A DNA stretch of 64,000 bases from Candidatus Cloacimonadales bacterium (GCA_963677495.2 CAXXOU010000004.1:1408001-1472000); one strand, 5' to 3'; shown: positions 3,059 through 30,179, counted from the stretch's first letter. Numbers and translations are program-made. The notes: a model not told the origin generated them from the letters alone.

Positions 3059-4381
3059 CTAGTTAGTCTTTTGCAGTTTTGCAGCGAATGCACCATCTAT
3101 ATTATGGATATGTGGTTTTGTCAAATAAAACTCTTCATCAGTGTATATAAATGGGACAAAATCACTCGCCGGTACTAGTTTAAAATTCTTATGAGTTTCT
3201 AGAAATCGCTTTATCTGCTTCTGATTTTCATCAGGATTTAGTGTGCAGGTTGAATAGATTAAATATCCACCTTTTCTGACAAATTGTGATCCATAATCTA
3301 GAGCCTTAGCCTGTAACTTTAGCATCTTCTTGATGTCCTGATGTTCTTGCCACCTTAACTCAGCTTTACGACCAAATACACCCCAACCGGAACATGGTAC
3401 ATCAAGTAAAACTTTATCATATGCAGGTGCTAATGGACCATATTTTAAAGCATCAGATACTACGGTTTTAATATTTGAAAGTTGAAGACGTTCTGCTGCT
3501 TGCTTTATCTTCTTTACTTTGGAGGGACTTTTATCAATCGCAATTACTTCACCAGTATTTCTGAGTTTTTCAGCAACAAACGTTGCTTTACCACCCGGTG
3601 CAGCAAACATATCCAAAATATTATCCTCAGGTTGTGGATCTACCAGAGCTACAACTCCTGCAGCTGCTGTATCTTGAATCGAGTAGTATCCCTCTGCAAA
3701 AGCTACATCTTGTAAGACTTCTCCTGCTGAATCGGTTACAAGTAGTTGTGGAACTAAATCACTAACTTTGAATTCTAGATTGTGTTTAGTTTTGAAATAG
3801 TTAATTAACTTGGGAATAGTTGTAGCTATTTCATTAACTCTTACATGAAGTTTTGGGATGTCATTGAAATATATAGCTAAGTATTCAGCTTCCTCCTCAC
3901 CCCAAAGCTCTACCCATTTCCTTACTATATCCTCAGGATAGGAGTGTTCAACCGATATACGTTTAATAGTATCGTTTGGGAACTTTATCCCTGGTGTTCT
4001 TAGATAGTTCCTTAAAACAGCATTAATGAAATCCCCTGTTCTTGGATTTAAACTCTTCTTTGCCAGCTCAACAGTTTCATTCACAGCTGCATACTCAGGA
4101 ACTGAATCCATGTATATTAACTGATATAGGCCAATATAAAGCCAAATCTTTATTTGTATATCTGTTTTGGGATATTTAGTTTTATCAGATAATGTTCCAG
4201 CAATATATTCTAAGTTGTTTCTCATTTTTATAACACCCTTGACAAGGGTGTAAAAGAGATTTGCATCACCATCTGCTTTTCGTATTTTATTTGAACTGGA
4301 ACGAAGTAATGAATCTGAAAACTCATTACTTTTAAGGACTTTTCGGATTACTTTATAAGCTTCTAATCTTTCGTTGATCAT
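3059..4381 (-). CDS. rsmB: 16S rRNA m5C967 methyltransferase RsmB/Sun
   Basis: NusB-like N-terminus; DMFAAPGGKAT, LLDVPCSG and YSTCT motifs. Confidence 0.93.
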   Translation of the reverse strand: MINERLEAYKVIRKVLKSNEFSDSLLRSSSNKIRKADGDANLFYTLVKGVIKMRNNLEYIAGTLSDKTKYPKTDIQIKIWLYIGLYQLIYMDSVPEYAAVNETVELAKKSLNPRTGDFINAVLRNYLRTPGIKFPNDTIKRISVEHSYPEDIVRKWVELWGEEEAEYLAIYFNDIPKLHVRVNEIATTIPKLINYFKTKHNLEFKVSDLVPQLLVTDSAGEVLQDVAFAEGYYSIQDTAAAGVVALVDPQPEDNILDMFAAPGGKATFVAEKLRNTGEVIAIDKSPSKVKKIKQAAERLQLSNIKTVVSDALKYGPLAPAYDKVLLDVPCSGWGVFGRKAELRWQEHQDIKKMLKLQAKALDYGSQFVRKGGYLIYSTCTLNPDENQKQIKRFLETHKNFKLVPASDFVPFIYTDEEFYLTKPHIHNIDGAFAAKLQKTN

Positions 4382-4382
4382 T

Positions 4383-4982
4383 CTAACCTTTTCTATAAAG
4401 TTGCTTGATAGCGTCTTTAATCAAAACCTGAACATCTTCATATTCTTTCTGTTCAGTAAGTGTTTTTAAAGCCTTTCTTGCTTCATGTTTCATATAACCA
4501 AGATTTAATAATGCAGTTTCAGCAGACAAGAAAACTTCGTTGTTGATTACATTTGCAGGTAACTGCTCAAGACCATGAATTGAATCGACTTTGTCTTTCA
4601 GCTCAACGATAAGCTTTGCAGCTGTTTTCTTACCTAAACCGGGTACTGTTGAGATGGTCTTTGTATCACCTTCTAGGATTGAACTAACTATTCTGGCTAC
4701 CGGCAAAGTTGATAGAACTGCTACAGCGAGCTTTGGTCCTACACCGGAAGTAGATAGTAATAACCTGAACATCCTTCTCTCATTCAAATCAGCAAAACCA
4801 AACAATCTTACTGAATCTTGAGATTGATGGTAGTGAATATGTAGTTTAAACTTATTCTTAATCTGTGGTAACTTTTCAAAAGTGCTTACAGGTATCAATA
4901 CAAAGAAACCAATTCCATTAACATCTAAAACTGCATACTCCGGATTCTTTTCTGCGAGTATTCCTCTTAAATATTCATACAT
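4383..4982 (-). CDS. ruvA: Holliday junction branch migration protein RuvA
   Basis: MYEYLRG..., SGVGPKLA, VPGLGKKTAAKLIVELKDK. Confidence 0.96.
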   Translation of the reverse strand: MYEYLRGILAEKNPEYAVLDVNGIGFFVLIPVSTFEKLPQIKNKFKLHIHYHQSQDSVRLFGFADLNERRMFRLLLSTSGVGPKLAVAVLSTLPVARIVSSILEGDTKTISTVPGLGKKTAAKLIVELKDKVDSIHGLEQLPANVINNEVFLSAETALLNLGYMKHEARKALKTLTEQKEYEDVQVLIKDAIKQLYRKG

Positions 4983-4984
4983 AT

Positions 4985-5464
4985 TTATAAATCAAACTTT
5001 ACTTTATTGTAGTGGCATAAGGCAACAGCTAGAGCATCAAATGCATCTTCTGAGTTTGGTATATTCTTAAGTTTTAGCATCTGTTCAACCATGTACCTAA
5101 CTTGGTTTTTTGAAGCATTTCCATTGCCTGTTACAGCTTTCTTTACTTCTCTGGGTGAGTATTCGTAAAACTTGGTCTCATTTTGAGCAATAGCCAGAAG
5201 TATAACACCTCTGGCATGACCCAATGTAAAAGCGGACTGAATGTTCTTACCGTAGAATATTGATTCTACAGCAATAACGTCAGGATTGTATTCGTTAATA
5301 ATCTCATTAATCTTTGTATATATATGATTGATTCTTATATGTAAAGAATCATTAGCTTTTGTTTTAACAACATCAGCACCGGCAGCAACTATTGTTCTTC
5401 GGTCAAGGTCCAATAGACCATAACCACATTTTATACTGCCGGGATCTATGCCTAATATTACCAC
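4985..5464 (-). CDS. ruvC: Holliday junction resolvase RuvC
   Basis: ILGIDPG, AVE, ARGV, VKKAVTG.G.A.K, DAFDALAVA. Confidence 0.96.
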   Translation of the reverse strand: MVILGIDPGSIKCGYGLLDLDRRTIVAAGADVVKTKANDSLHIRINHIYTKINEIINEYNPDVIAVESIFYGKNIQSAFTLGHARGVILLAIAQNETKFYEYSPREVKKAVTGNGNASKNQVRYMVEQMLKLKNIPNSEDAFDALAVALCHYNKVKFDL

Positions 5465-8734: not shown

Positions 8735-11700
8735 CTACTTCATCAACATCATCTTCTTAGTTACGTTATAACTATTTGATTTCAATCGATAGAAATACAC
8801 ACCTGTTGCACATTGTTTATTGTTCCTATCAAGTCCTTCCCAAACAACTGTGTTCTTGCCTTCACTGAACCCTTTATAACGCTTAACCATCTGACCTCGT
8901 ATGTTATAAATAGAAAGCTCAGCTACATCATCCTTAGCTACATCAAAGCTGATAGTTGTAGTTGGATTAAATGGGTTCGGATATGCGCTATATAACTTTG
9001 TTTGTAATTGAGGTTGTTGTACTTCAGGTTCATAAATCCCAACAGATTGTTCTAACGCTACAAGATATGGATAACCATTGTTTAAGCTAGTATCAATAGT
9101 CCAAATATCTTCTGAACCATTTGCTGTTTCCCCGAGGAAGTCCCAACCTATATTTAAATATGACTGTATATCCCTCATCTCAGATGAAATCAAACTAATA
9201 ATACTATTAGTTGTGTTATCAGTATTACCAATACTATTAGACAATTCAGTAAGTGTAATGTTCCAAATACAATTACTAGCAGAGCTATTAACACTTGTAC
9301 CAATAAATCCTCCAGTAGATGAATCGACAACATTATCCGGGAATCTAGTTACAGAATAGCAATCCTCAATGAAAGAGTTGCCTAACAATCCTACTAAACC
9401 ACCTACATTTGATGCAGATGATACATAATAACTTTCTATACAACCAAGACTTGAAGATGTATAACAGTTACTTATCACTGAATCATCATTAGCTTCACCA
9501 ACTAAACCACCAACCGATTCAGATGCTGAAACTATTGATAAGCTATATGATTCAGTTAATGAAGAATTACTCAAAAAACCTACTAGTCCACCACTTTGAA
9601 TTCTTGCTCCGCTTGAGCCAAGGAAGTATGAATCTGAAATCATTGAATCTTGAGCAAAACCAATGAGTCCTCCTGCTTTTAATCCATCGGATAAGCTGTA
9701 GAAATCATGATATCCCCAATATTCTGAATAACATGCACCGGAGTGACCATTCACATAGCAATTGCTAATTGCAGTGTCACAAGCAAAACCTACTAGTCCA
9801 CCTGCGTTATTCTTACTAAGTACATTTACATTGAATATTTCTACATCAGTGATTAAACAACTATTAGTAGCTATTCCACATAAACCTCCAACAGAATCGT
9901 CTCCTTCAACAGAAACATTATTTAAATCTATATTATCAAGTGTCGTATTCGAAATAGATCCACAAACAACTCCAGTATTGTCTTCTCCTTCAAGTTCACA
10001 GTTATCAAACTTAAGGTTTTCGATTGTGCAACCCTGTGCTTGAGCAAAGAATCCGCAGTTCTCATCCTTGATAAGTGAGTAGTTAGATATTGTATAATTG
10101 TTTCCGTTTATATTTGAAATCATTTTTGGGATATAAAAATTAGCCTGATCTTGCAAATCGATGTCTGAGTTTAGACTAAAGCAAAAACTGGAAATTGAAC
10201 CAAAATGTATCAGATACTTAATCTCATCAAAACTGTTTAATTGATATGCTGAATCATTATATGTTAAGTAATCATCAATATAAATTTCGTCTATTGACAT
10301 ATCATTTGCAATCCAATCATAGTATAAGTCACTTGGAAGAGCAAACTCAGAAACTCGATGCCCAGAATTTATTATCACAGTTTCATAATCATAATAACAA
10401 TTACTAGCACTGTTTAACTCAAAATCTCTACCAAAAAAGCTATGTGAAACTATACAGTTCAAAGGTCCTGTAAATGTACATCTTGAAAAGGTTGAGTTTG
10501 AAGCATGAGCTACTAATCCATATCCATTAATTTCTGATTCACTTGAACAATTAGAAAGTGTACTGGAAATACAAGCCCCAACAACTCCACCCATCAAAGC
10601 ATAACTGGGAATTGTCTCACCGAAGAAACTACAATCGATAACTTCACTATTTATTGATCTTCCAATCACTCCACCACCATAGTTCATTATTTGAACCCAT
10701 TGCTCAATATATCCCTCAGCTTCAACACTACATATTGATGTGCAATTACTAACAAGTGTAGAAGATGCTGTTCCGATTATTCCCCCTGTAGCCTCATATG
10801 GATTATCACTATCTACACGACCTGATGTATGACAATTGATAATCTCTGAGTTATCAGAATTAACAATTAATCCTGCATAATGTGCGAAAGTATTGCTAAC
10901 GTTAAGGTTGGATATTATCGCATCATGTACATAACCAAACATAGCTGAATCAAATACGAATAAACTATCAACTACAAATCCACCACCATCGTAGATTCCC
11001 ATAAAATGATTATCGTAATCTCCAATTGCCTGAAAACCCAAATCCCATTCATAATCACCCATAACATCTGTTTGAGACGCTGAGGCATCAATATCATTGG
11101 TTTGGAGAAAATATGTATCATTAAACCCATTATTGTTTTCACAACTAACACTTATCCATTTCAAATCAGAGTATGAACTGATTTGGTAAGGATCGGTTTC
11201 TGTACCCGAACCATTAATAATATGATTCACAGTAACATAGTCTTCTTTTATTAAAGAATCTGAACCAGTTTCGTTTGATATTGTCAAAGTAACATCATAC
11301 ACACCAAATTCGTCATATGTCCAAATTGGATTCTGCTCATAGCTATCAATTATCCCATCACTTTCAAAGTCCCACTCCCAACTTGTTGGATTACCATAGC
11401 TGGAGTCAGTAAATTGTAATGTTTCTTCAATATCAACCACATCATTGCTAACTGCAAAGTTTGAGACAAGTTGCTGATTGTAAACAAATGGAAACCCATC
11501 ATTGATGTTTTCTTGTATACCCCAAATTTCTTCAGAGCCATTCACAGATTCCCCAACAAAATCCCATCCGAGTGAAGTATAGGTAGATTCTTGTCTCATC
11601 TCGTTTTCAGTACAATTTATTATATTATCAATAGTACCATCAGTGTTTGTATAAACAGCATACAATTCTCCATTATACAAAGAGTCATTCCAAACACAAT

Positions 11701-18771: not shown

Positions 18772-21700
18772 ATGTCAATTGCAAAATTCTCAGTACGTAA
18801 CTCAGTGCTGATTAATATGATAATGATCATGGTTTTCATTGCAGGTATCTATGCAATGATACAACTCCCTAAGGAGGAGATGCCACAAGTTGAGTTTGGC
18901 ATGGTCGTTATCTCTGTTGCTTATCCGGGGGTCTCTCCTGCTGAAATTGAGCAGATGATTGTCACTAAGATTGAGGATGAGATTTCTGATATAGATGATA
19001 TAGATTACATCGAGTCTACTGCCTCTGAAGGATATGCTCTGGTTCGTATTAGCTTCGAGGCTGACGCTGATATGGATGAAGCATGGACAGATGTGAACAC
19101 TGAAATGGATAAAGTAAACGATCTACCTGAAGATGCTATGGACCCGGTTCTTATGCGCATCAATATGAAGGAAGTGAATGAGATCTGTTCAATTGTTGTG
19201 AGTGGAGACTTTCACCCAAACACAATGCGAGACATCGCTGATACAATGGAACAAGGTCTAACCAACATAAAGAACGTATCTAAGGTTGAAACCAGTGGTA
19301 CAAGGGAACGAGAAATCTGGATAGAGGGCGACATCGAGAAGCTGAATGCTTATGGTCTTTCCCTAGACAATATCAGCCAAACAGTAGGGGCAAGAAACCT
19401 CAATGTTCCCGGTGGTTCTGTTCAGTTCGGTTCTGCAGAGTTTATTATCCGTTCAATGGGTGAGTTCACTGATGTTAACCAGATTAAAGAGCTGCCTGTT
19501 ATGATGGATAGCTCCGGTAGAGCTGTAAGAATCAAAGATGTAGCCACTGTTGTAGATACATTAGAAGAGTCTTCAGTTATCTCTAAACAGGATGGTGCAA
19601 ACAGTATTACTATTGAAGTGTACAAGAAAGCTCAAGGTAACATCGTAACTGTTATGGAGAACGTGAGAGAGTATTGTGCTGATTTCGAACAGACTGTTCC
19701 AAACCTTAAAGTCACTGTTCGTGATGATGGTTCAATTGCTGTTAACAGTGCTTTACGCTCATTAGGTTCAAATGCAATGATTGGTATTATCCTTGTGTTT
19801 GTTATCCTAACTATCTTCCTCGGCTGGAGAAATGCCTTATTTGCTGCTTGGGGAATCCCATTCAGTTTCTTCCTCACATTTGTAATGATGTTCTACTTCG
19901 GTGTAACTATGAACAACCTATCACTCTTTGCTCTAGTACTGGTACTGGGTATGATTGTGGACGATGCTATCGTTGTTATCGAGAACTTCCATCGTTACAT
20001 GGAGATGGGTTACTCACGGAAAGAAGCCGCTATTCAGGGTACTGAAGAGATTATGTGGCCTGTCATAGCTGCTGTCCTCACAACAATTACTTCCTTCTCC
20101 CCTATCCTTATGATGGAAGGAATCATGGGACAGTTTATGAGTGTATTCCCACTCGTCGTAATGTTTGCATTAATGGCTTCACTCTTTGAATCATTAATAA
20201 TACTTCCATCCCATTTGGCAGAGTTAAGCCCAAAAACTTTAAGTAAAAAGAAAAAGGACAGTTTACACGATAAACTCGTTAAAAGATATAGATGCACTGT
20301 AACAAGAGTGCTTAAACACAGATTCTTAACTATCTTTGTTGTAGTATTTTTGTTAATACTATCAGCTCTCGCTCTTATGTTCAGAATGGTTAAGTTTGAG
20401 TTCTTCCCACGTAGAAACTCTGATACTCTTGTCTTGAAACTTGAGACTCCGGTTGGAACAAGTCTTGAGCAGACAAACGTAGTTGTTTCTGAAGTAGAGC
20501 AGTTTGTTGCAAGCATGGCTGAAGCATCAGATATAGAAGCAGTTATCTCCCAAATCGGACTCATTAAAGGTCGAGGTACACGTTCTACATCTTCTAATAA
20601 TGCCGAAGTAAAGCTTGATATGATTGATATTGAAGAACGTAACTTCGATGACAATGTTATTAAGAATAAGCTACGTAAGTATATGAAAGACCTGCCGGGA
20701 CTCTACTCCTTTAAGTTCGATCAAGAGAGTAAAGGTCCACCAACAGGTAATGATGTTGAGATTCGCATTACCGGTGAGAGCTTAGAAAGACTTGAATATA
20801 TCGGTGAATATATCAAGAATCAATTAGCACAAATACCGGGTGTAGATGATATAGATGATAGTTTTGCTCCCGGTAAGCAAGAGATTCAAATCTTACCATA
20901 CCAGGATAGACTCTCTTATTATGGTCTTACAGCAGCTTCTATCTCATCTGCAGTACGCGGTGCTTCAAATGGTTCTACTATCTCCATTTATCGTGGGGAC
21001 GGTACAGAAGAGTTCGATATTGTACTGAAAGCGAAAGAGTATCAGATTGATGACCTCAATGAACTTAAGAATATGAAGATACGCTCATCTAAAGGAGCTC
21101 TTATACCACTGAAAGATGTAGCTGAGTTCAAAGTAGAAAGCGGACTTAACCAGATTCAGCACTATGATACAGACAGATATATTACTATCACAGCTGCTGT
21201 TGGCACTTATATCGATGATAATGGTAATGCTCAAAGTCGTACAACCGATGAAGTACAAAAGATACTTGAAGGTGATAAGATTCGTGGTACTAAAGGTCTT
21301 TTAACAGACTTTAACAACAAGTTCCCGGGTTATTATCTCACCTATGGTGGTGTGAACAAGATGATGAGACAGTCATATAGTTCACTTTATCTAGCTTTCA
21401 TGATTGCTATCCTCGGAGTTTATACTATTCTCGCAACACAGTTTAAATCATATATTCAACCTCTCATCGTGATGGCAACTATCCCGTTTGCCTTTATCGG
21501 TGTAGTTCTTGGCTTGATCCTGACCGGTTTGCCATTCTCATTGAATACTCTGATTGCTGTGGTTGCACTAGTTGGAGTTGTTGTTAATGACTCACTCGTG
21601 CTTGTTGATTTCGTGAATAGAGAACGTGAACAAGGTGTTGATAGATGGAATTCTCTTATTAATGCAGGTGCACTTCGACTCAGACCAATTATTCTTACAA

Positions 21701-21972
21701 CAGTTACAACAGTTGGTGGTATGCTACCTATGATTTTCTCATCAGCAGAATCATCAGCTGACTACAAATCAATGGCTGTAAGTATAGTTTTTGGACTTAG
21801 TTTCGCAACCCTGCTCACACTGTTTGTTATTCCTACTATCTACTCAATTGTAGACTCCATCTCAGGAAGATTACATGCGAGTCGTTTTGGTTCACACATC
21901 AGTTTTAAAGATGCTGTAATCAATACTGATAAAGGTATTGAAAACATAGATAATTGTAAAACAGGTAAATAG
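18772..21972 (+). CDS. RND efflux permease (AcrB/AcrD/AcrF family)
   Basis: GMIVDDAIVVIEN, GVVVNDSLVLVD, RLRPIILTT; 1066 aa. Confidence 0.95.
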   Translation: MSIAKFSVRNSVLINMIMIMVFIAGIYAMIQLPKEEMPQVEFGMVVISVAYPGVSPAEIEQMIVTKIEDEISDIDDIDYIESTASEGYALVRISFEADADMDEAWTDVNTEMDKVNDLPEDAMDPVLMRINMKEVNEICSIVVSGDFHPNTMRDIADTMEQGLTNIKNVSKVETSGTREREIWIEGDIEKLNAYGLSLDNISQTVGARNLNVPGGSVQFGSAEFIIRSMGEFTDVNQIKELPVMMDSSGRAVRIKDVATVVDTLEESSVISKQDGANSITIEVYKKAQGNIVTVMENVREYCADFEQTVPNLKVTVRDDGSIAVNSALRSLGSNAMIGIILVFVILTIFLGWRNALFAAWGIPFSFFLTFVMMFYFGVTMNNLSLFALVLVLGMIVDDAIVVIENFHRYMEMGYSRKEAAIQGTEEIMWPVIAAVLTTITSFSPILMMEGIMGQFMSVFPLVVMFALMASLFESLIILPSHLAELSPKTLSKKKKDSLHDKLVKRYRCTVTRVLKHRFLTIFVVVFLLILSALALMFRMVKFEFFPRRNSDTLVLKLETPVGTSLEQTNVVVSEVEQFVASMAEASDIEAVISQIGLIKGRGTRSTSSNNAEVKLDMIDIEERNFDDNVIKNKLRKYMKDLPGLYSFKFDQESKGPPTGNDVEIRITGESLERLEYIGEYIKNQLAQIPGVDDIDDSFAPGKQEIQILPYQDRLSYYGLTAASISSAVRGASNGSTISIYRGDGTEEFDIVLKAKEYQIDDLNELKNMKIRSSKGALIPLKDVAEFKVESGLNQIQHYDTDRYITITAAVGTYIDDNGNAQSRTTDEVQKILEGDKIRGTKGLLTDFNNKFPGYYLTYGGVNKMMRQSYSSLYLAFMIAILGVYTILATQFKSYIQPLIVMATIPFAFIGVVLGLILTGLPFSLNTLIAVVALVGVVVNDSLVLVDFVNREREQGVDRWNSLINAGALRLRPIILTTVTTVGGMLPMIFSSAESSADYKSMAVSIVFGLSFATLLTLFVIPTIYSIVDSISGRLHASRFGSHISFKDAVINTDKGIENIDNCKTGK

Positions 21973-21991
21973 TTTTACCTAAACTCAAAAC

Positions 21992-22025
21992 AAAAGGCTA
22001 CCATGCTTCGGCTGGTAGTCTTTTT
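21992..22025 (+). terminator. Terminator of the RND operon
   Basis: aaaaggctacca...tggtagtcttttt. Confidence 0.75.
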
Positions 22026-22114
22026 CCTATTTTGAGGCATCATTATTCCTGTAATCACTACTCCCCTACTCCCATATTCTCCCCCCTTTTCTCTCTCATT
22101 TCTCAGCAGTAATT

Positions 22115-22198
22115 CTTGGTAGACACTTGACAAACACCTGGCAAACCCTTGGCCTATTCTTGGCCTAATTACCAAGAATTTACTAACCTATCACCAAG
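22115..22198. repeat. 11-bp-phased direct/inverted repeat element (core CTTGG/CCAAG)
   Basis: cttgg/cttga/cctgg at 22115, 22126, 22137, 22148, 22159; ccaag/ctaac at 22172, 22183, 22194. Confidence 0.75.
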
Positions 22199-22583
22199 TT
22201 AAAACCTGTTTACAATCACTAATTACTGCTGAGAACAGAATGAGTGTATTGGCATACATCAAAATGAAAATGCATTAATCAGTTACTTTGCTCCCTTTCA
22301 ACCCAAAGGAATCATATGGGATTTTCTCACGATTATCACGGGAATTTCTCGGGCAAAGCCCCGGGAGATTCTCGCGTGTATCCCTTGTATTGTAAGAGGG
22401 CATAGCGATGACTTGAGCTACGTAAAACGTCTCTCCGGGGCGTTTATCCCGTTTTTTTAAGGGAGTTTGCCAGACCATCGGGAAAGCGGACTTCCTAAAA
22501 AAAAACCACCAACCCTTTTTAGGAATTTCTCATGTGCATTTGCGAAAGCGGATTGAAAAACCCTCGCTAAATAACAGCAAGCA

Positions 22584-23215
22584 TTATCCCAATGGGATAA
22601 AATGTGAATAGCCATGAAATGCATGGTCGCATGTACAATTATAACCGTCGACCCCGAAGTGGGTCGAAGATGTTCTTAGTTGAACCGATGTTTGCACTAA
22701 GGATTATTCAGCCCATTTAGGGCTGTGGTTTCTGGTGATAGTTCCTATGGGCTTGCGCCCATAGCTATTCATCTTCAGCACACAAGGTGCTGTGATATAA
22801 ACACAGAATTGTGTCTAAAATATTCTACTTGTTAGATATGTAGCTTCCCTAGAACCCCTACTTTTAAGTAGGGGAACTAATTTGACGAACTCACCTTTCC
22901 CCACCCTCCCCACATTTCAGTTCGAAATGTGGGGAGGGTGGGGTTTCCATATTTGTAATGAAGCTATGCCACCAGATAAATCTGGTGGTTTTGGGGATAA
23001 TTTATGTAATGTACATAATCATATATTATATTGATTGTTAGCACTTACTGATAGATATTTTCAACCCACTTTGGGGTTGACTTTTCTGGAAAATCATTAA
23101 CCCCGAATTGCATTCGGGGCTACTCAAATGTAACCCCTTTGGGGTTAACAAAAGATGGGCATAGCGTCGCTATGCCCATAATATTAGTGCGAGCAGGGAT
23201 GCTCGCGTACCCGGT
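22584..23215. repeat. Cluster of at least 13 short palindromes (REP-like mosaic)
   Basis: Examples: ttatccc-aat-gggataa, ctatgggc-ttgc-gcccatag, ccccaccctccccacatttc-agttc-gaaatgtggggagggtgggg, atgggcatagcg-t-cgctatgcccat. Confidence 0.8.
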
Positions 23216-23218
23216 ATA

Positions 23219-23860
23219 TTAATTCCCAATTAGATGTAACCAATCCCCAAAGAGGAACTGGATTCTACCGATTAGGAGTGAGATTCTAGCCATTACGGTA
23301 TAACCAAAGGCAGCACCGAAGCTTATCATCAGGAAGTAGATTCCAACTTTAGCTACAACACCGAATCCACCTTCATGCTTTTTACTGAAGTAGAAGTATG
23401 CAAGACCGGTTACAGTCCCAACAATCATTAGAGTCTCCCCTATCATTTGAGCTATGTTCCCGGATGCAAACGGATTAATCATTGTCGCAACAAGCTGCTG
23501 TATGAGGTCTGACTTGATGAATAAAAGGAAACTCAAACCGGAGGTTGTACCCATTAGTAATGAGATTGGGTAACGACTCAACCATTCAAGTTTAGGGATT
23601 AACCTTATTAGCATCATAACACCGAGAAGTGCAGGTACGATTAGTAACCAATTTCCACTGAAGTCAGTTGTTAATTTACTGTATAAGTTAGGAATCATTA
23701 TAAAGTAGATTGTATAGATAAACCAATAACCTGCTGAGAGACCGACGAATATCTGCTCAGCTACTTTGTATAATGGATTATCTTTATAAAGGAAGCTAAG
23801 GATAGCAAAGGTTAGAATTGCTCCAATCCAGATGCCGAGAGATGTCATTAAATCTATCAT
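23219..23860 (-). CDS. Multi-pass membrane protein, gene 4 of the DUF6754-like operon
   Basis: About 6 hydrophobic helices; SFLYKDNPLYKVAEQIFVG; start overlaps the upstream stop (ATGA). Confidence 0.85.
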   Translation of the reverse strand: MIDLMTSLGIWIGAILTFAILSFLYKDNPLYKVAEQIFVGLSAGYWFIYTIYFIMIPNLYSKLTTDFSGNWLLIVPALLGVMMLIRLIPKLEWLSRYPISLLMGTTSGLSFLLFIKSDLIQQLVATMINPFASGNIAQMIGETLMIVGTVTGLAYFYFSKKHEGGFGVVAKVGIYFLMISFGAAFGYTVMARISLLIGRIQFLFGDWLHLIGN

Positions 23861-24678
23861 TTCTTACCTCCTTTCTTCTTATCTACATAGTAGGCTATAT
23901 TACCCAAGGCAATGAAAATGATGATGATAAGATGTGCTATAGATTGTGCATCCATACCTGCAGTAGCCTTTCCGATACTACCAACAAGTTTCTCATATTC
24001 TGCTGCCCCTTTAAGTCCACCTAGTAAACCATGAAGTTGCTTTTGTTTATTTAAGTATGGTAACATCTGAGGAGCACTAACTGCTGTAGCACCACCGGCT
24101 ACCGGAACATTGTACTTATCATTGGCAACCATTATCCATTCTTTTAGCCCTGGTGTCCCTGCTGAGAGCGAGACAACGTAACCGATACTCTCAAAGTTCT
24201 TAACATTCTTCATGATAGGGATATCGCCAATCTGAGTACCGTTTATATCTTTGGGGTAAACATTAGCAAAGCTTCTGCCCATTGCTTGGATTGTAACCAT
24301 ACCACCGGCTTTATATCCTAAGTTGACATAGTCAGTTCCATATTCAACCGGATAGTCCTCTTCTAACGACCGAACAGTGTTTTCACCAATAATCACACCC
24401 ATTGGCCATAGAGCTGTCATAATCACTTTGTGCTTCTTACGGAATGCATGTTCCAGAATAGCTTTTGCCATTGGTTGAAGCTCCGCCTGACTGGCAGGAT
24501 CGAAGTCTAAGGACACAATTACCGGAGTATCTTCCGGTGTACTTTCAATCAATTCATATATATCAATTGAGTTTTGTGAAACTTCTAAATTGAATCCAAT
24601 CTTTACAAGTAACGGAATTGAGACACCGATGAACAGGAGTAGGAAGATTATTCTTCTATCGATTTTGAGGAGATTCAT
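23857..24678 (-). CDS. Membrane-anchored alpha/beta protein, gene 3 of the DUF6754-like operon
   Basis: TM - soluble domain (YGTDYVNLGYKAG, GGLKGAAEYE, MDAQSIAH) - TM; start overlaps the upstream stop (TAATG). Confidence 0.85.
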   Translation of the reverse strand: MNLLKIDRRIIFLLLFIGVSIPLLVKIGFNLEVSQNSIDIYELIESTPEDTPVIVSLDFDPASQAELQPMAKAILEHAFRKKHKVIMTALWPMGVIIGENTVRSLEEDYPVEYGTDYVNLGYKAGGMVTIQAMGRSFANVYPKDINGTQIGDIPIMKNVKNFESIGYVVSLSAGTPGLKEWIMVANDKYNVPVAGGATAVSAPQMLPYLNKQKQLHGLLGGLKGAAEYEKLVGSIGKATAGMDAQSIAHLIIIIFIALGNIAYYVDKKKGGKK

Positions 24679-25373
24679 TATTTACCTCCTAAATGAGAAC
24701 GTTCGATCCCCAGAAGAATTCGAACAGAACTACCGATTACACCTAAAGCAGCTGAGACCATAATCGCTCTTTGACCTGCTGTAGCAGGATACTTCATAAT
24801 AAAGTCAGCAATGTTTGGAAGATGCATAAACCTTAGTCCTTGTGGTAACCAACCGGTTAGAGTGCTACCGACACTTGTTCTACCAAGCATAACGAGTATG
24901 GCTGCGATCAAAAGCAGAGTTGATTCAGGGGAGCGTGCAATGAAAGCTCTATAAGCTGCTGAAGCAATGAAGAAAGCAAGTAATGCAAACATTGTTGCTT
25001 GTAGATGTTGATAGACATTATTGAAGAGATAATCGAATGGTTTTGCTCCAAAGAATGCTTGCACAGCAAGTCCATCCCCAAGCATACCAGCCTGCTTCTC
25101 AGTGCCCCATAATAAGCCGATTATCACCATAACGAAGAAGGAGACTATAGTTATTATATAATACTGCCAGTTGTCCTTCTTATGCTTGATTTTGAGGAAA
25201 GTCATAGTTAGAAGACTTATCTGACCTAAAAGTATAGCAAAACCGGCTATAATCATGAACCAGTTCTCTAGACTTGTACGAATAGTATTAAACGGAGGGT
25301 GTGGAATGAATTCGGAGAAGATGATGAGCATTCCAACGAAGAATGTAATTATTAATGGTAGTGTTCTTTTCAT
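24678..25373 (-). CDS. Multi-pass membrane protein, gene 2 of the DUF6754-like operon
   Basis: About 6 TM helices; TMFALLAFFIASAAYRAF, RILLGIER. Confidence 0.85.
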   Translation of the reverse strand: MKRTLPLIITFFVGMLIIFSEFIPHPPFNTIRTSLENWFMIIAGFAILLGQISLLTMTFLKIKHKKDNWQYYIITIVSFFVMVIIGLLWGTEKQAGMLGDGLAVQAFFGAKPFDYLFNNVYQHLQATMFALLAFFIASAAYRAFIARSPESTLLLIAAILVMLGRTSVGSTLTGWLPQGLRFMHLPNIADFIMKYPATAGQRAIMVSAALGVIGSSVRILLGIERSHLGGK

Positions 25374-25380
25374 GTTCTCC

Positions 25381-26478
25381 TCACTTCATCGACAGAAAGT
25401 CACGTAGTCCGGTAATGCCGAACATCTCAAGGATGATACCGATTACCAGAATGATTATAAATATCGCTTTGCCCCAATCCTGACCTTTAAGACCACCAAG
25501 TTGAGCAGGTTCTTTAGAGAGGTATGCTGATGCTGCAAAGAGTTCCTCACCGATGAGTGTGAAGTCACAAGCAGCCACAAAGAATGGAAGCTGAGACGGC
25601 ATAGCAGTACCGGCTGTTTGAATAGCACCACTGGCGAAACCTGTCTCTGCCAAGATAAGAGATTCAGCATAGAATGTACCGAGATAAAAGTTAGCCGCAG
25701 GCTTATCTCTGACAATTATACCATCTACCCCTGCAACAAAACCAAACTGGTCATCAGTCAAATAGAAGATGGTTTCAGGATTGAATGCATCAGGTCTACC
25801 TGCTTGCATATAAGCTTCTTTAACTATCTCACGTGCAGCGGATAAGACCATTGATCGGCAAACAGGAACGATAATTTCAGTATCATAAGTAGCAGCTTTC
25901 TTAGCAAGATGGCTAAGAATTGTCAATCCTGCAATTGTCTGCATATCATCAAGATCGGAGATACCCGGGACAAAGAGAATCGGACGTCCCATCTCTGTAG
26001 CACGTCCTACAGCTTCGTCCATTGATTCGAGACCTGAGATTCTTCTTATATAGAGCTCTTTTCCTCTTCTTGCTGAAATTATAAAGAATAGTATTAGACC
26101 CATTAATACAATAGAAGCAATAAGAACCGGAACTTTGGTTTTGTTGAACCATTGAGCAACTGGTCTACCGGTTAACTCATTCGAAGTAATTAAAGAATCA
26201 GCATTATAGAAGTTTATTCTATATCTGTATTCTTTCTTATAATCTAGTTCCTTATCCTGGAACGATTTTGTTCCGTTTGTAACAGTAATAAGCTCTTCAT
26301 AAGAACCTTCTACATTCTCTTTTTCAACAATAACTTTATCGATAGCTTCATCGCCATAATCCCATTCCAGGAGTAGTACACTCCCATCATCATTAGGTAA
26401 GTCTGAAATTGCTGATTGAGTTGAGAAGATGCATAATGGTAAAAGTAGCAGTAAAATAGCTATTAGATGTCGTCGCAT
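25381..26478 (-). CDS. Fn3-like plus DUF6754-like membrane protein, gene 1 of the operon
   Basis: Signal peptide; Fn3-like segment (LLEW...YRYRI); TM; RRISGLESMDEAVGRATEMGRP...LIGEELFAASAYLS...QD; C-terminal TM; RBS GGAGAG. Confidence 0.82.
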   Translation of the reverse strand: MRRHLIAILLLLLPLCIFSTQSAISDLPNDDGSVLLLEWDYGDEAIDKVIVEKENVEGSYEELITVTNGTKSFQDKELDYKKEYRYRINFYNADSLITSNELTGRPVAQWFNKTKVPVLIASIVLMGLILFFIISARRGKELYIRRISGLESMDEAVGRATEMGRPILFVPGISDLDDMQTIAGLTILSHLAKKAATYDTEIIVPVCRSMVLSAAREIVKEAYMQAGRPDAFNPETIFYLTDDQFGFVAGVDGIIVRDKPAANFYLGTFYAESLILAETGFASGAIQTAGTAMPSQLPFFVAACDFTLIGEELFAASAYLSKEPAQLGGLKGQDWGKAIFIIILVIGIILEMFGITGLRDFLSMK

Positions 26479-26666
26479 ACACTCTCCGTTTTATTGTGAT
26501 AGCTAATTAATTAAAATCAGATTTTGAGTGTCAATGAAAGAGTTGGATTTGATTTAATCAGTTACTAACAAAATGAAACAAAAGAAAGAAATACAAAAAA
26601 ATGTTGACGATAAGAAACCTGTATGTATAAATCAGATTAGAAGCGATTCAGATAATGCGAGGAAAT

Positions 26667-29600
26667 ATGAAAAAAGTTATACTACTATCCCTATTCCTAT
26701 TAATTTGTGTTTCAGTATTCTGTCAATTAAGTGATAATATTCCCAATATTTTAGTCATTCAATCTTACCATTCAGGTTATAAATGGTCTGATGAAGTACA
26801 GAATGGTATTGTTAATACTCTACGGGATTATAATTCAAAGGTCCATATATCAACCGAATATATGGATACGAAAAGATACAGTACAAAGTTTGATATAACT
26901 GAAGCAAAACGCATTTTTACTCGCAAGTACAAAGAGATGAAGTTCGATTTAATTATCACTGTCGATAATTTTGCATACAATTTTATTCATGAAATTGGTG
27001 ATACTATCTTTCATAAAGTCCCAATTGTTTTCTGTGGAGTGAATGGTTTCGAATACTCAATGCTTAATGATAAGACCAATATAGCCGGTGTTAATGAAAA
27101 AGCAGGTATTCTGCAAAACTTCAAGTTAATCCGAAAAATACATCCTGATGTTGAAACAATTTTCGTAGTTAATGATGAGACATTAACAGGAAAAGAGTTA
27201 AATAGAGAGATAGACAAAGCTAAAAAATGGTTACCTCCAACAATTATGTTAGAGCAACCTCGCAATATTTCAATGGAAGACTTAAAGGTAAAACTTGGGA
27301 ACCTATCCCCAAACACTATTGTTCTCTATACAATATTTTTTAAAGATGGGAACAACAAGTTTTTTGAGTTTGATAATAGTATAATTGAAGTTGTTAATGC
27401 CAGTAATTCCCCTGTTTACGCTTGTTGGGATTTCAGTCTTGATTATGGTACTGTAGGCGGTTTCATGAATAATGGTGCCTATCAGGGCGAGAAAGCAGCT
27501 AAGAAGGCCATTTATATATTAGAAGGTAATGATCCACAAGAAGCCGGAATAGATATGACTAGTGCAAACAGATATATGTTTGACTATAAAGCACTTCAAA
27601 GATGGGAAATCAAGAAGAAGCAACTTCCAAACAGATCAATAGTAATAAACTCACCTGAAACATTTTTCGAAAAAAACAGGACACTGTTACTTCAGTTTGG
27701 TGCACTATTAGTGTTATTAATAGCTATTATCCTAATTCTTATAATAAATACTCTTAAAAGAGGAAAACTCCATAAGAAACTTGCAGAATCCCATGATAAG
27801 CTTACAAGTCTAGCTGGTAGTCTTGAATCTACTGTTAGAGCGAGGACGCAAGAGCTTGAAGATGAACGAACATTTATGTCTACTGTTCTTGATACGGAAG
27901 AAGCTATGGTTCTTGTGGTAAGTAATCGAGGAAGAATTAAAAGAGCTAATGTGTTCGCTAAAAAGCTTCTTGGGTATCAAGTTACTGATGAAGTTGAAGG
28001 AGAGTTCTGTACATTCATCTCCGATAAGAACATGGTTACTCATTTTAAGTCATCTTATGATAAACCTGAAATGTTTAGACATGGCATTACGCAAGAGTGC
28101 CCAATCCGATCATTACATGGTGTTGATTATGTTATACGTGCCAACTTTACAGGAATGTATACTAACAACGTTCTTGAATATGTTGTTATAACAGGTTTGG
28201 ACATTACAAAAGAGAAGAAAACCGCTAAAGAGTTAGCAACAAAAGAAAAGAGATTTAGACAGGTTTTTGAGAACAATGGGTCTGCAACTATATCTTTTAA
28301 AAGAGATGAAACAATTAATATGGCCAATGCTGAATTTGAAGCACTAGCAGGTTGTAGTAGAGAACAGGTTATTGGTAAAATGAAGTGGTCTGATTTTGTC
28401 CATCATTCTCAAGTCTCAAAGATGCGTAAGTATCAGGAACTCAGATGGCAGGGCGATCCACATATACCAAACAAGTATGAATTCAAATTTGTTGATGTTA
28501 ATGGCATAGTTAAGGACGTTTTGATAACTGTTGTTATGCTCCCTGAATCTGAGGAATCAGTCGTAACTCTGCTTGATATTACTAATAGAAAGAATGCAGA
28601 ACGAGCAACAAAGCAAGCAATGCGAGCAGAAAAAGCGGCAAATAAAGCTAAATCATCATTCTTAGCAAATATGAGCCATGAGATAAGAACTCCTCTTAAT
28701 GCTATAATTGGTATGTCTTACTTGATGTTCGATACAAAACTTGATGAAGAGCAAAGAGACTTCATTGAAACTATCAAGATAAGTAGTGATGCTCTTTTAG
28801 CTATAATTAATGACATCCTCGATTACTCAAAGATTGAAGCAGGAAAGCTAGAATTAGAAGCCATTCCATTCGAAATCACTGATCTTGTTGAAGATGTTCT
28901 CGATATGTTTGCCGGAACAGCAAGTAAGAAAGGTATAGAATTGATTTACCAAATTGCTGAAGATGTTCCTCTTACTATAGTTGGTGATCGCAACAAATTG
29001 AGGCAGATTTTAATCAATCTTGTTGGTAATGCACTTAAATTCACTGAGCAAGGTGAGATAGTTATTGAGGTTACAAATCAGAAGGTTGGAGAAGAGAATA
29101 GAGTTGAATTTAGAGTTGCTGATACCGGAATTGGTATTAAAGAGGACAATCTGAACAGATTATTTAAATCTTTCAGTCAAGTTGATGCTTCTACAACCAG
29201 AAAGTTTGGAGGGACTGGTTTAGGACTAGCAATTTCCAAGCGTTTGAGCGAAATGATGGGTGGATCAATGTGGGTTGAAAGTGTATATGGAAAAGGTTCA
29301 ATATTCCACTTTGATATACAGGTTGCTGCCGGAGAAACAAAGAAGAAAGTTTTCCAGAAGAAAGAGCAACCTAATCTTCAAGACAAACGTGCACTTATTG
29401 TTGATGATAATGATAAGAACAGACAGATACTGCAACATCAGTTATCATGGTGGGGTATGAGCTCAGAAGCTGTTGAGACTCCTTTTGAAGCTTTAGAACT
29501 AATACAGAAAGAGGACTTCGATATTGTACTTTCTGATTACCTCATGCCTGATATGGATGGTGCTGAGATGTGTAAGAAGATCAGGACAGATCTTAATATG

Positions 29601-30179
29601 ACGAGTTTACCGCTCATCATCCTTACATCAGCGGGAAACATTGAGGACTGCAAACCTTTCTGTGATAAAGTACTAACTAAACCCGTAAAAATATCTAACC
29701 TCTATAAAGTTATATACAACTTATTCTCCCATTCCGATGAAGAAGTTACCTATGAACGTAAAGATTTGGGATTTGATAGAAGTCTTGCTGATAAAATCCC
29801 ATTGAAGATATTAGTTGCTGAAGATAATTTCATCAATCAAAAAGTGATTCTGAAGATACTTGAAAGACTTGGTTATGATGCTGATATTGTTGAAAATGGT
29901 GAAGAAGTACTAAACATAGTGCCTAGAAATGATTATGATATCATACTGATGGATATTCAGATGCCAATAATGGATGGTATCATTGCTTCAGCAGAAGTAA
30001 GAGCTTTGGGAGACAAGATTAAACAGCCACAAATCGTTGCCTTAACAGCACATGCTATTGCTGATCAATTGGATAAAATAGTAACAGATGATATGGATGG
30101 TTTTCTTACAAAGCCTGTCTCCATTAACTCATTAAGAAAAGGCTTAGAGAACGCTTACAACAGAATAAAGGATAAGTAG
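26667..30179 (+). CDS. Hybrid sensor histidine kinase (periplasmic ABC-binding-like sensor, 2 PAS, HisKA, HATPase, 2 REC)
   Basis: [43 protein letters not shown], two receiver domains (DYLMP, MDIQMP). Confidence 0.95.

Follow-up and report, generated by a model that had tools for sequence, protein, structure and literature searches.

Which cellular task calls for four tightly coupled membrane-protein genes, three of which match no named family and the fourth of which carries a domain with no assigned function? The question is raised by an operon at positions 23219-26478, on the minus strand, of a 64,000-nucleotide (nt) stretch of DNA from a Candidatus Cloacimonadales bacterium (GCA_963677495.2 CAXXOU010000004.1:1408001-1472000), hereafter the window. 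An initial annotation, made from the sequence of the window alone, had read the four proteins as a self-contained transporter or channel built from two paralog pairs. Our analysis points to a different arrangement: the four proteins probably make up a heteromeric module of the inner membrane, of which this genome encodes two, and an actin/Hsp70-fold (ASKHA) ATPase with its companions (together, the engine), encoded on another contig, would drive it.

The four-gene module and its spread

The open reading frame (ORF) map of the operon and its borders is given below, with protein sizes in amino acids (aa).

25381-26478, minus strand: subunit A, 365 aa
24678-25373, minus strand: subunit B, 231 aa
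23857-24678, minus strand: subunit C, 273 aa
23219-23860, minus strand: subunit D, 213 aa
26479-26654: intergenic region between A and a divergent 1174-aa ORF, presumed to be the operon promoter region
23155-23179, minus strand: terminator-like hairpin directly 3' of D, with an 11-pair stem followed by CTTTTGTT; a match to the consensus only

The genes are separated by a 7-nt gap between A and B (TGA-GGAGAAC-ATG) and overlap by 1 nt between B and C (TAATG) and by 4 nt between C and D (ATGA), which matches exactly the coordinates and junctions given in the initial annotation for four coupled minus-strand genes. In the presumed promoter region, promoter-like sites are not in excess (9, against a shuffle mean of 13.2).

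Subunit A belongs to the DUF6754 family (PF20539; E 2.8e-123, 410.5 bits against a cut-off of 27), with residues 108-359 matching model positions 3-254 of 257, and the family label given in the initial annotation was therefore correct. Subunits B, C and D exceeded no Pfam or NCBIfam cut-off, and the scans against these two databases revealed no ATPase or transporter family in A-D. Searches of solved structures, by profile and by sequence, with A, B, C, D, the ATPase and its partner protein described below gave best E-values of 0.024 to 2.7, none of them significant. Matches of B and D in a protein atlas were unnamed clusters only. In a homology search with a B profile, the 120 relatives listed were all at least 60% identical, and the 48 that carried a source name were called 'hypothetical protein'. 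Considering anti-phage defence, no PADLOC-DB family matched any of the seven proteins of the module and the engine at E <= 0.01. The view that the system has no assigned function is thus borne out by Pfam, NCBIfam, solved structures and PADLOC, in which no characterised complex was matched. The Pfam DUF6754 entry, carried by A and by all the relatives examined, describes one subunit only and assigns it no function.

We regard the four genes as real because their relatives are kept in 193 of the 201 Cloacimonadota genomes sampled, usually with two or three PF20539 matches in each. The genomes without PF20539 are six of 1.5-1.6 Mb from a single family (97-99% complete), together with G069 (93%) and G163 (80%). 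The genome studied here carries a second module on another contig:

L003 (contig C1, 745000-760000), 5297-9199, minus strand: second A-B-C-D module, with proteins of 552, 207, 335 and 200 aa

Its proteins are 47, 38, 34 and 45% identical to A, B, C and D, respectively. It lies between an upstream gene for a 374-aa secreted protein with an fn3 match (9196-10320) and a downstream gene for a 612-aa protein with an Ig-like domain (HYDIN/VesB-like; 3339-5177).

The order A-B-C-D was found in all 21 Cloacimonadota loci examined. A wider scan, with one genome per species, detected at least 616 loci, of which 79 were kept; their labels include Cloacimonadota, Zixibacteria, WOR-3, TA06, Ignavibacteria, Eisenbacteria, Fermentibacteria-type, Armatimonadota, Marinimicrobia, Planctomycetes and Bacteroidota. 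A complete module is present in 65 of these 79 loci, with 101 A-B-C-D modules in total, and most of the 14 loci lacking one are short or truncated by the end of a contig. Adjacent gene pairs were almost exclusively AB (104), BC (108), CD (113) and DA (42), the only others being two CC and one AA, which look like split ORFs. This constancy upholds the earlier claim of one conserved membrane unit. A profile search with D yielded 2746 clusters at 50% identity with E <= 0.001, 1990 of them at 1e-10 or better.

A linked actin-fold ATPase

The initial annotation had also noted the lack of any ATPase or transporter motif. This is true of the four window proteins but not beyond the locus, since in other phyla an ATPase is linked to the module. 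The corresponding genes in the genome studied here are located on a contig other than that of the window:

L056 (contig C3): genes for proteins of 129, 620 and 376 aa in a row
L057 (contig C3), 6785-9655, minus strand: 956-aa protein whose first 476 residues match PF13941

The 620-aa protein covers the whole PF13941 model (423.8 bits, positions 1-450) and carries about 120 extra residues at its C-terminus. The 376-aa partner has a barrel-sandwich N-domain (Biotin_lipoyl, E 3.6e-06). By eye, the C-terminal part of the 956-aa protein resembles this partner, which suggests a natural fusion of ATPase and partner; similar proteins of 916-925 aa occur near modules in three other loci (L093, L133 and L136).

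PF13941 also covers Or-4 and GlmL/MutL, an accessory protein of the coenzyme-B12-dependent glutamate mutase. GlmL/MutL is described in PMC4682846 as a chaperone that reactivates glutamate mutase. The ATPase studied here scored 218.4 bits against the NF040745 cut-off of 475 for true GlmL and 203.8 bits against the NF040744 cut-off of 600 for Or-4, thus falling below both equivalog cut-offs. Moreover, the glutamate mutase E subunit (Met_asp_mut_E, PF06368) had no match in its own 99.46%-complete genome, and its neighbours in other phyla are four membrane proteins and not a mutase. Judged by these profiles and gene contexts, the family name GlmL/MutL does not fit this ATPase. In a literature search with subscription journals and supplements outside its reach, no paper was found on DUF6754, PF13941 or GlmL as an ASKHA protein.

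The ATPases of other phyla are 56-65% identical to that of this genome (23 sequences), and three stretches, D15-K22, D301-D308 and G437-H444, are invariant or nearly so among them. We take these stretches to be the ASKHA phosphate and adenosine motifs, and with these three nucleotide-binding stretches conserved the ATPase looks active. The partner is 41-52% identical across phyla.

Outside the 15 closest loci, the common gene order is small protein, ATPase, partner and then one to three A-B-C-D modules. ATPase, partner and A-B-C-D follow one another directly on one strand in 15 of the 79 loci, and two or three tandem modules lie behind one engine in 22. Among loci L073-L136, those with at least 4.5 kb of upstream sequence encode the ATPase in 20 of 36 cases. 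Five genomes without the ATPase at the module locus were inspected, and all five carry one elsewhere.

Module and ATPase also co-occur. Both are present in 193 of the 201 Cloacimonadota genomes, where the remainder comprises two with the ATPase only, six with neither and none with DUF6754 only. A second phylum was reached through locus L128 and is represented by 206 genomes, including one unpublished (G283). DUF6754 is found in 188 of these, with up to nine matches per genome; 181 genomes have both DUF6754 and the ATPase, 15 have neither, seven have DUF6754 only and three the ATPase only. In other words, the ATPase is also missing from 15 of the 18 genomes of this phylum that lack DUF6754.

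A physical connection between the two is predicted by structure modelling. The docking model combined residues 138-336 of A, which lie between its transmembrane (TM) helices (50-row alignment), with the 620-aa ATPase (23-row alignment). The predicted docking reached an ipSAE of 0.70 (0.69, 0.70 and 0.71 in the individual runs), against 0.00 for the best of three controls. The 0.70 mark is reached by 116 of 157 solved complexes and by 2 of 215 mismatched pairs, counts that serve only as a rough guide here given the custom alignments. The runs agree in at least 95% of the contacts, and the predicted local distance difference test score (pLDDT) of the docking partner is at least 76. The core of the predicted surface on A is a short motif:

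25987-26007, minus strand: codons of GRATEMG, residues G158-G164 of A

The predicted interface comprises residues 151, 154-155, 158-159, 161-165, 197-199, 281, 284-286 and 305 in A and residues 114-119 (including V115 and M118), the G165-G170 loop, 228, 231 and 405-410 in the ATPase, most of them conserved in the respective families. In the Cloacimonadota set, the six residues of GRATEMG other than M163 are invariant; among 50 sequences of several phyla, G158, R159, T161, E162 and G164 are invariant, and A160 and M163 nearly so. The model supports binding of A to the ATPase together with a cytoplasmic location of the DUF6754 domain. Since the residues of GRATEMG other than the nearly invariant ones are also invariant in the second module of this genome, both modules could share one engine.

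Topology of the subunits and the question of paralogy

Subunit A is laid out as a signal-peptide-like N-terminus (aa 1-24), an external Fn3 domain (aa 20-108), TM1 (aa 116-136), a DUF6754 alpha/beta domain predicted to be cytoplasmic and a C-terminal TM helix (aa 337-357), and hydropathy analysis gives three segments (6-24, 116-134 and 338-356). Its structure model is poor (pLDDT 61.6, with residues 243-333 below 50), because of which the fold of DUF6754 is not established, and the fold search with this model covered the Fn3 part only. Subunit C has a TM helix predicted to be N-in, a Rossmann-like alpha/beta domain predicted to be extracytoplasmic, a C-terminal TM helix and a basic tail that is predicted to be cytoplasmic. 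Its model is confident (pLDDT 85.8, predicted template modelling score 0.82), with a helix at 8-24, a six-strand alpha/beta domain and a helix at 237-268, and the fold search returned generic Rossmann-like matches only (glycosyltransferase and sugar-binding-protein lobes). The layout of TM helix, alpha/beta domain and TM helix that had been claimed for both proteins is therefore confirmed for C by a confident model; for A it comes from hydropathy and a poor model.

Subunit B is a six-TM protein with six hydropathy segments, and its invariant residues include R147, E150, R202 and a C-terminal G-I-E-R..L-G. Subunit D is polytopic, with about six TM helices, and is the best conserved membrane subunit, with the motifs SFLYKDNP and GYTVMARISLLIGR; four of its hydropathy segments lie above the threshold and two weaker ones are seen by eye. 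The earlier count of about six TM helices in both proteins thus stands for B and, in D, depends on those two weaker segments.

Orientation was predicted by the positive-inside rule from counts of lysine plus arginine (K+R) in 122-123 family members per subunit. The DUF6754 domain of A is predicted to be cytoplasmic, with the strongly basic RRGKELYIRR following TM1, which fits the predicted docking on the ATPase, and the domain of C to be extracytoplasmic, given its basic N-terminus and a C-terminal tail with 4.0 K+R in 8.6 residues. B is predicted to have both ends inside. For D the counts are ambiguous, with 5.96 K+R in about 35 residues of the odd loops and 6.9 in about 80 residues of the even loops, N-terminal end and tail. 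Opposite orientations within each pair, as initially proposed, are consequently supported for the domains of A and C and for the N-in start of B, and the counts for D leave its half of the second pair ambiguous.

Two further features of D concern its sequence family. Residues 37-84 align to about 101-156 (hhalign 28%, E 0.00062), a weak hint of an internal repeat; for the halves of B the corresponding comparison gave 2.6%. Many representatives of the D family greatly exceed 213 aa, the longest reaching 649 aa, and in some of them the D part is C-terminal, in others split into two or three stretches; certain lineages may thus have fused D to another protein, perhaps C, or acquired large insertions in it.

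The initial annotation had gone further and interpreted A and C, and likewise B and D, as ancient paralogs that form a 2+2 antiparallel complex, a secondary transporter or channel complete in itself, with one ligand domain facing each side of the membrane. Several of the features above are in keeping with this: A and C share the same coarse layout, their domains are predicted to lie on opposite sides, and B is N-in while D is possibly N-out. In addition, the hexapeptide LGGLKG occurs upstream of the last TM helix in both A (residues 327-332) and C (218-223); any 6-mer shared between A and a shuffled C was seen in 146 of 20000 shuffles, and LGGLKG recurs in 115 of the 123 sequences of the A family and in 64 of the 122 of the C family. 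Homology within the pairs was nevertheless not detected. BLASTP gave best E-values of 5.0 and 0.82, and hhalign with profiles of 22-23 Cloacimonadota sequences gave 0.7% for A-C and 0.4% for B-D. With 122-123 sequences from many phyla the values were 1.7% for A-C, where a TM helix was aligned to a TM helix, and 0.4% for B-D, both below the 5.7% of the control pair A-D; a colinear A-C alignment of 204 columns gave 1.3%. The proposed parallel C-termini come down to LGGLKG in A and C, which on sequence grounds is a curiosity and not homology, and fail for B and D, which share no 5-mer. The paralog pairs are accordingly not upheld. Taken with the ATPase linked in other phyla, the co-occurrence and the predicted docking of A, which all oppose a self-contained unit, this makes the antiparallel transporter highly improbable in our estimation.

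The size and number of the polytopic subunits raise another comparison. NqrD/NqrE and RnfA/RnfE are inverted-topology homologous pairs, and B and D are like them in being two similar-sized subunits of about six TM helices, B being N-in and D possibly N-out; they differ in that B-D homology is undetectable at the hhalign value given above and no Pfam Rnf/Nqr family is matched. The system might be an Rnf/Nqr-like energy-converting or enzymatic complex of anaerobes, with the partner as an NqrA/RnfC-like peripheral subunit and B and D as the ion-conducting pair. The barrel-sandwich domain of the partner would agree with this, as would its weak matches to RnfC_N (E 0.00063) and NQRA_N (E 0.002), the near-universal presence of the set in Cloacimonadota and the second phylum, and the very strong conservation of the engine. 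The two matches, however, remain under their cut-offs (20.2 against 25.6 bits and 18.8 against 25), and B and D match no Rnf/Nqr family at E <= 1. Moreover, B, C and D have no cysteine that is invariant or nearly so, and a single respiratory complex is hard to reconcile with genomes that hold as many as nine DUF6754 matches whose outward domains vary. We consider this explanation very unlikely.

A proposed energised module and its possible output

The reading that we favour, a module driven by the engine, can be put as a working mechanism. The engine would consist of the GlmL-like 620-aa ATPase, the 376-aa barrel-sandwich partner and the 129-aa protein. A would be the coupling subunit, with Fn3 directed outward, the DUF6754 domain in the cytoplasm and the GRATEMG surface docking on the ATPase; C would present its Rossmann-like domain on the outer face of the inner membrane, and B and D would make up the polytopic membrane core. 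Opening and closing of the ATPase, driven by ATP, would be passed through A to this core. The likeliest output would be to carry a substrate through the inner membrane, probably as uptake, with a single engine shared by several interchangeable modules. Assembly of the four proteins, their energisation by ATP hydrolysis and a role in transport are what we infer from the evidence taken together.

An actin-fold protein docked on a membrane protein could also act without moving anything. FtsA, PilM and GspL are actin-fold, nucleotide-controlled scaffolds that dock on membrane proteins, and by analogy the ATPase could be a scaffold on the cytoplasmic part of A that organises or senses the outward Fn3 and C domains, for envelope tethering, surface-protein display or transmembrane signalling. 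The predicted docking is of this kind. A also varies outward, its size ranging from 365 to about 1007 aa in relatives, whose large ectodomains give weak fn3 matches only, and the second module is flanked by the secreted Fn3 protein and the Ig-like-domain protein mentioned above; the searches of A-D in Pfam, NCBIfam and solved structures found no substrate-binding protein or known permease fold. The likeness to PilM, GspL and FtsA ends with the binding of an ASKHA fold to the cytoplasmic part of a membrane protein: the ATPase belongs to another branch of the fold (PF13941), its nucleotide motifs are fully conserved, and its four-subunit membrane partner is unlike pilus or secretion components. 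Nucleotide motifs that are invariant or nearly so point to turnover more than to static scaffolding, an anchor would not need two polytopic subunits that keep invariant charged residues at their membrane boundaries, as seen in the alignments of B and D, and several modules per engine fit a shared energiser. We therefore think a scaffold or signalling assembly unlikely, though it deserves more weight than the antiparallel and Rnf/Nqr-like explanations.

For the driven module, transport is the output we prefer because several modules are found per engine, the outward domains of A vary, and two polytopic subunits carry the invariant boundary charges. An energising unit that serves several membrane or binding modules is known from ECF transporters and shared ABC ATPases. 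The present system resembles these in having one ATPase-partner set for several modules, in tandem in the 22 loci already described and as two separate modules in this genome. It differs in that the ATPase has an actin/Hsp70 fold instead of an ABC nucleotide-binding domain, and in that transport is known for those systems and proposed for this one; ABC_tran was not matched by A-D, the ATPase, the partner or the 129-aa protein.

Several observations weigh against the driven module or its transport output. The ATPase is absent from 16 of the 36 loci with at least 4.5 kb upstream, and from all 15 of the closest loci (L058-L072), 14 of which bear a Cloacimonadota-type label. Shared ancestry confounds the co-occurrence counts: the six genomes of Cloacimonadota with neither component come from one family and therefore amount to about one loss event, and the second phylum includes the seven module-only and three ATPase-only genomes, for which completeness figures are not given. 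A survey of 492 neighbouring ORFs found no common theme, the recurrent neighbours being lineage-specific housekeeping genes. The docking value expresses the confidence of a model, and custom alignments were used for it. Transport and its probable direction are our own interpretation, the outward domains that might specify a substrate match Fn3 weakly and nothing else, and we know of no transporter class that uses an ASKHA ATPase, which makes the analogy one without precedent. An envelope housekeeping role other than nutrient transport would also be compatible with how very strongly the engine is conserved.

More tentatively still, and with considerable doubt, the system may represent a new class of primary active membrane machine, in which an actin/Hsp70-fold ATPase, neither ABC nor P-type nor rotary, powers interchangeable four-subunit modules via DUF6754, each specialised by its outward domains, in many uncultured phyla. 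Relative to characterised systems the system is new, and the copy in the window is an ordinary member of an uncharacterised family. So widespread and so constrained a machine, in lineages that are anaerobic and for the most part uncultured, probably has a central role at the cell envelope. If an actin-fold ATPase does drive a membrane module, it would constitute a new energy-coupling principle in membrane biology, and a role could be assigned to thousands of genes that metagenomes from digesters, sediments and guts list as 'hypothetical'.

With regard to the neighbours of the system in other genomes, a MotA/ExbB-family gene lies near it in eight loci (L077, L082, L086, L089, L096, L106, L111 and L122) and a TonB-dependent-receptor-like gene (Plug and CarboxypepD_reg) in five (L092, L103, L114, L126 and L127). 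These may hint at uptake through the outer membrane or may reflect mere lineage synteny, and they are too thin for naming a substrate.

In the window, about 1.2 kb on the 3' side of the operon (21973-23218) holds few ORFs and several hairpins, and no Rfam family came near its gathering score between 21900 and 23300. This stretch includes a perfect 20-bp inverted repeat at 22899-22943, and a 16-nt direct repeat is found at 23066 and 23134. The operon is flanked by two long ORFs, whose resemblances were read by eye from the translations:

18772-21972, plus strand: 1066-aa ORF resembling an RND/AcrB-type efflux pump
26655-30179, plus strand, divergent from the operon: 1174-aa ORF resembling a hybrid sensor kinase with receiver domains

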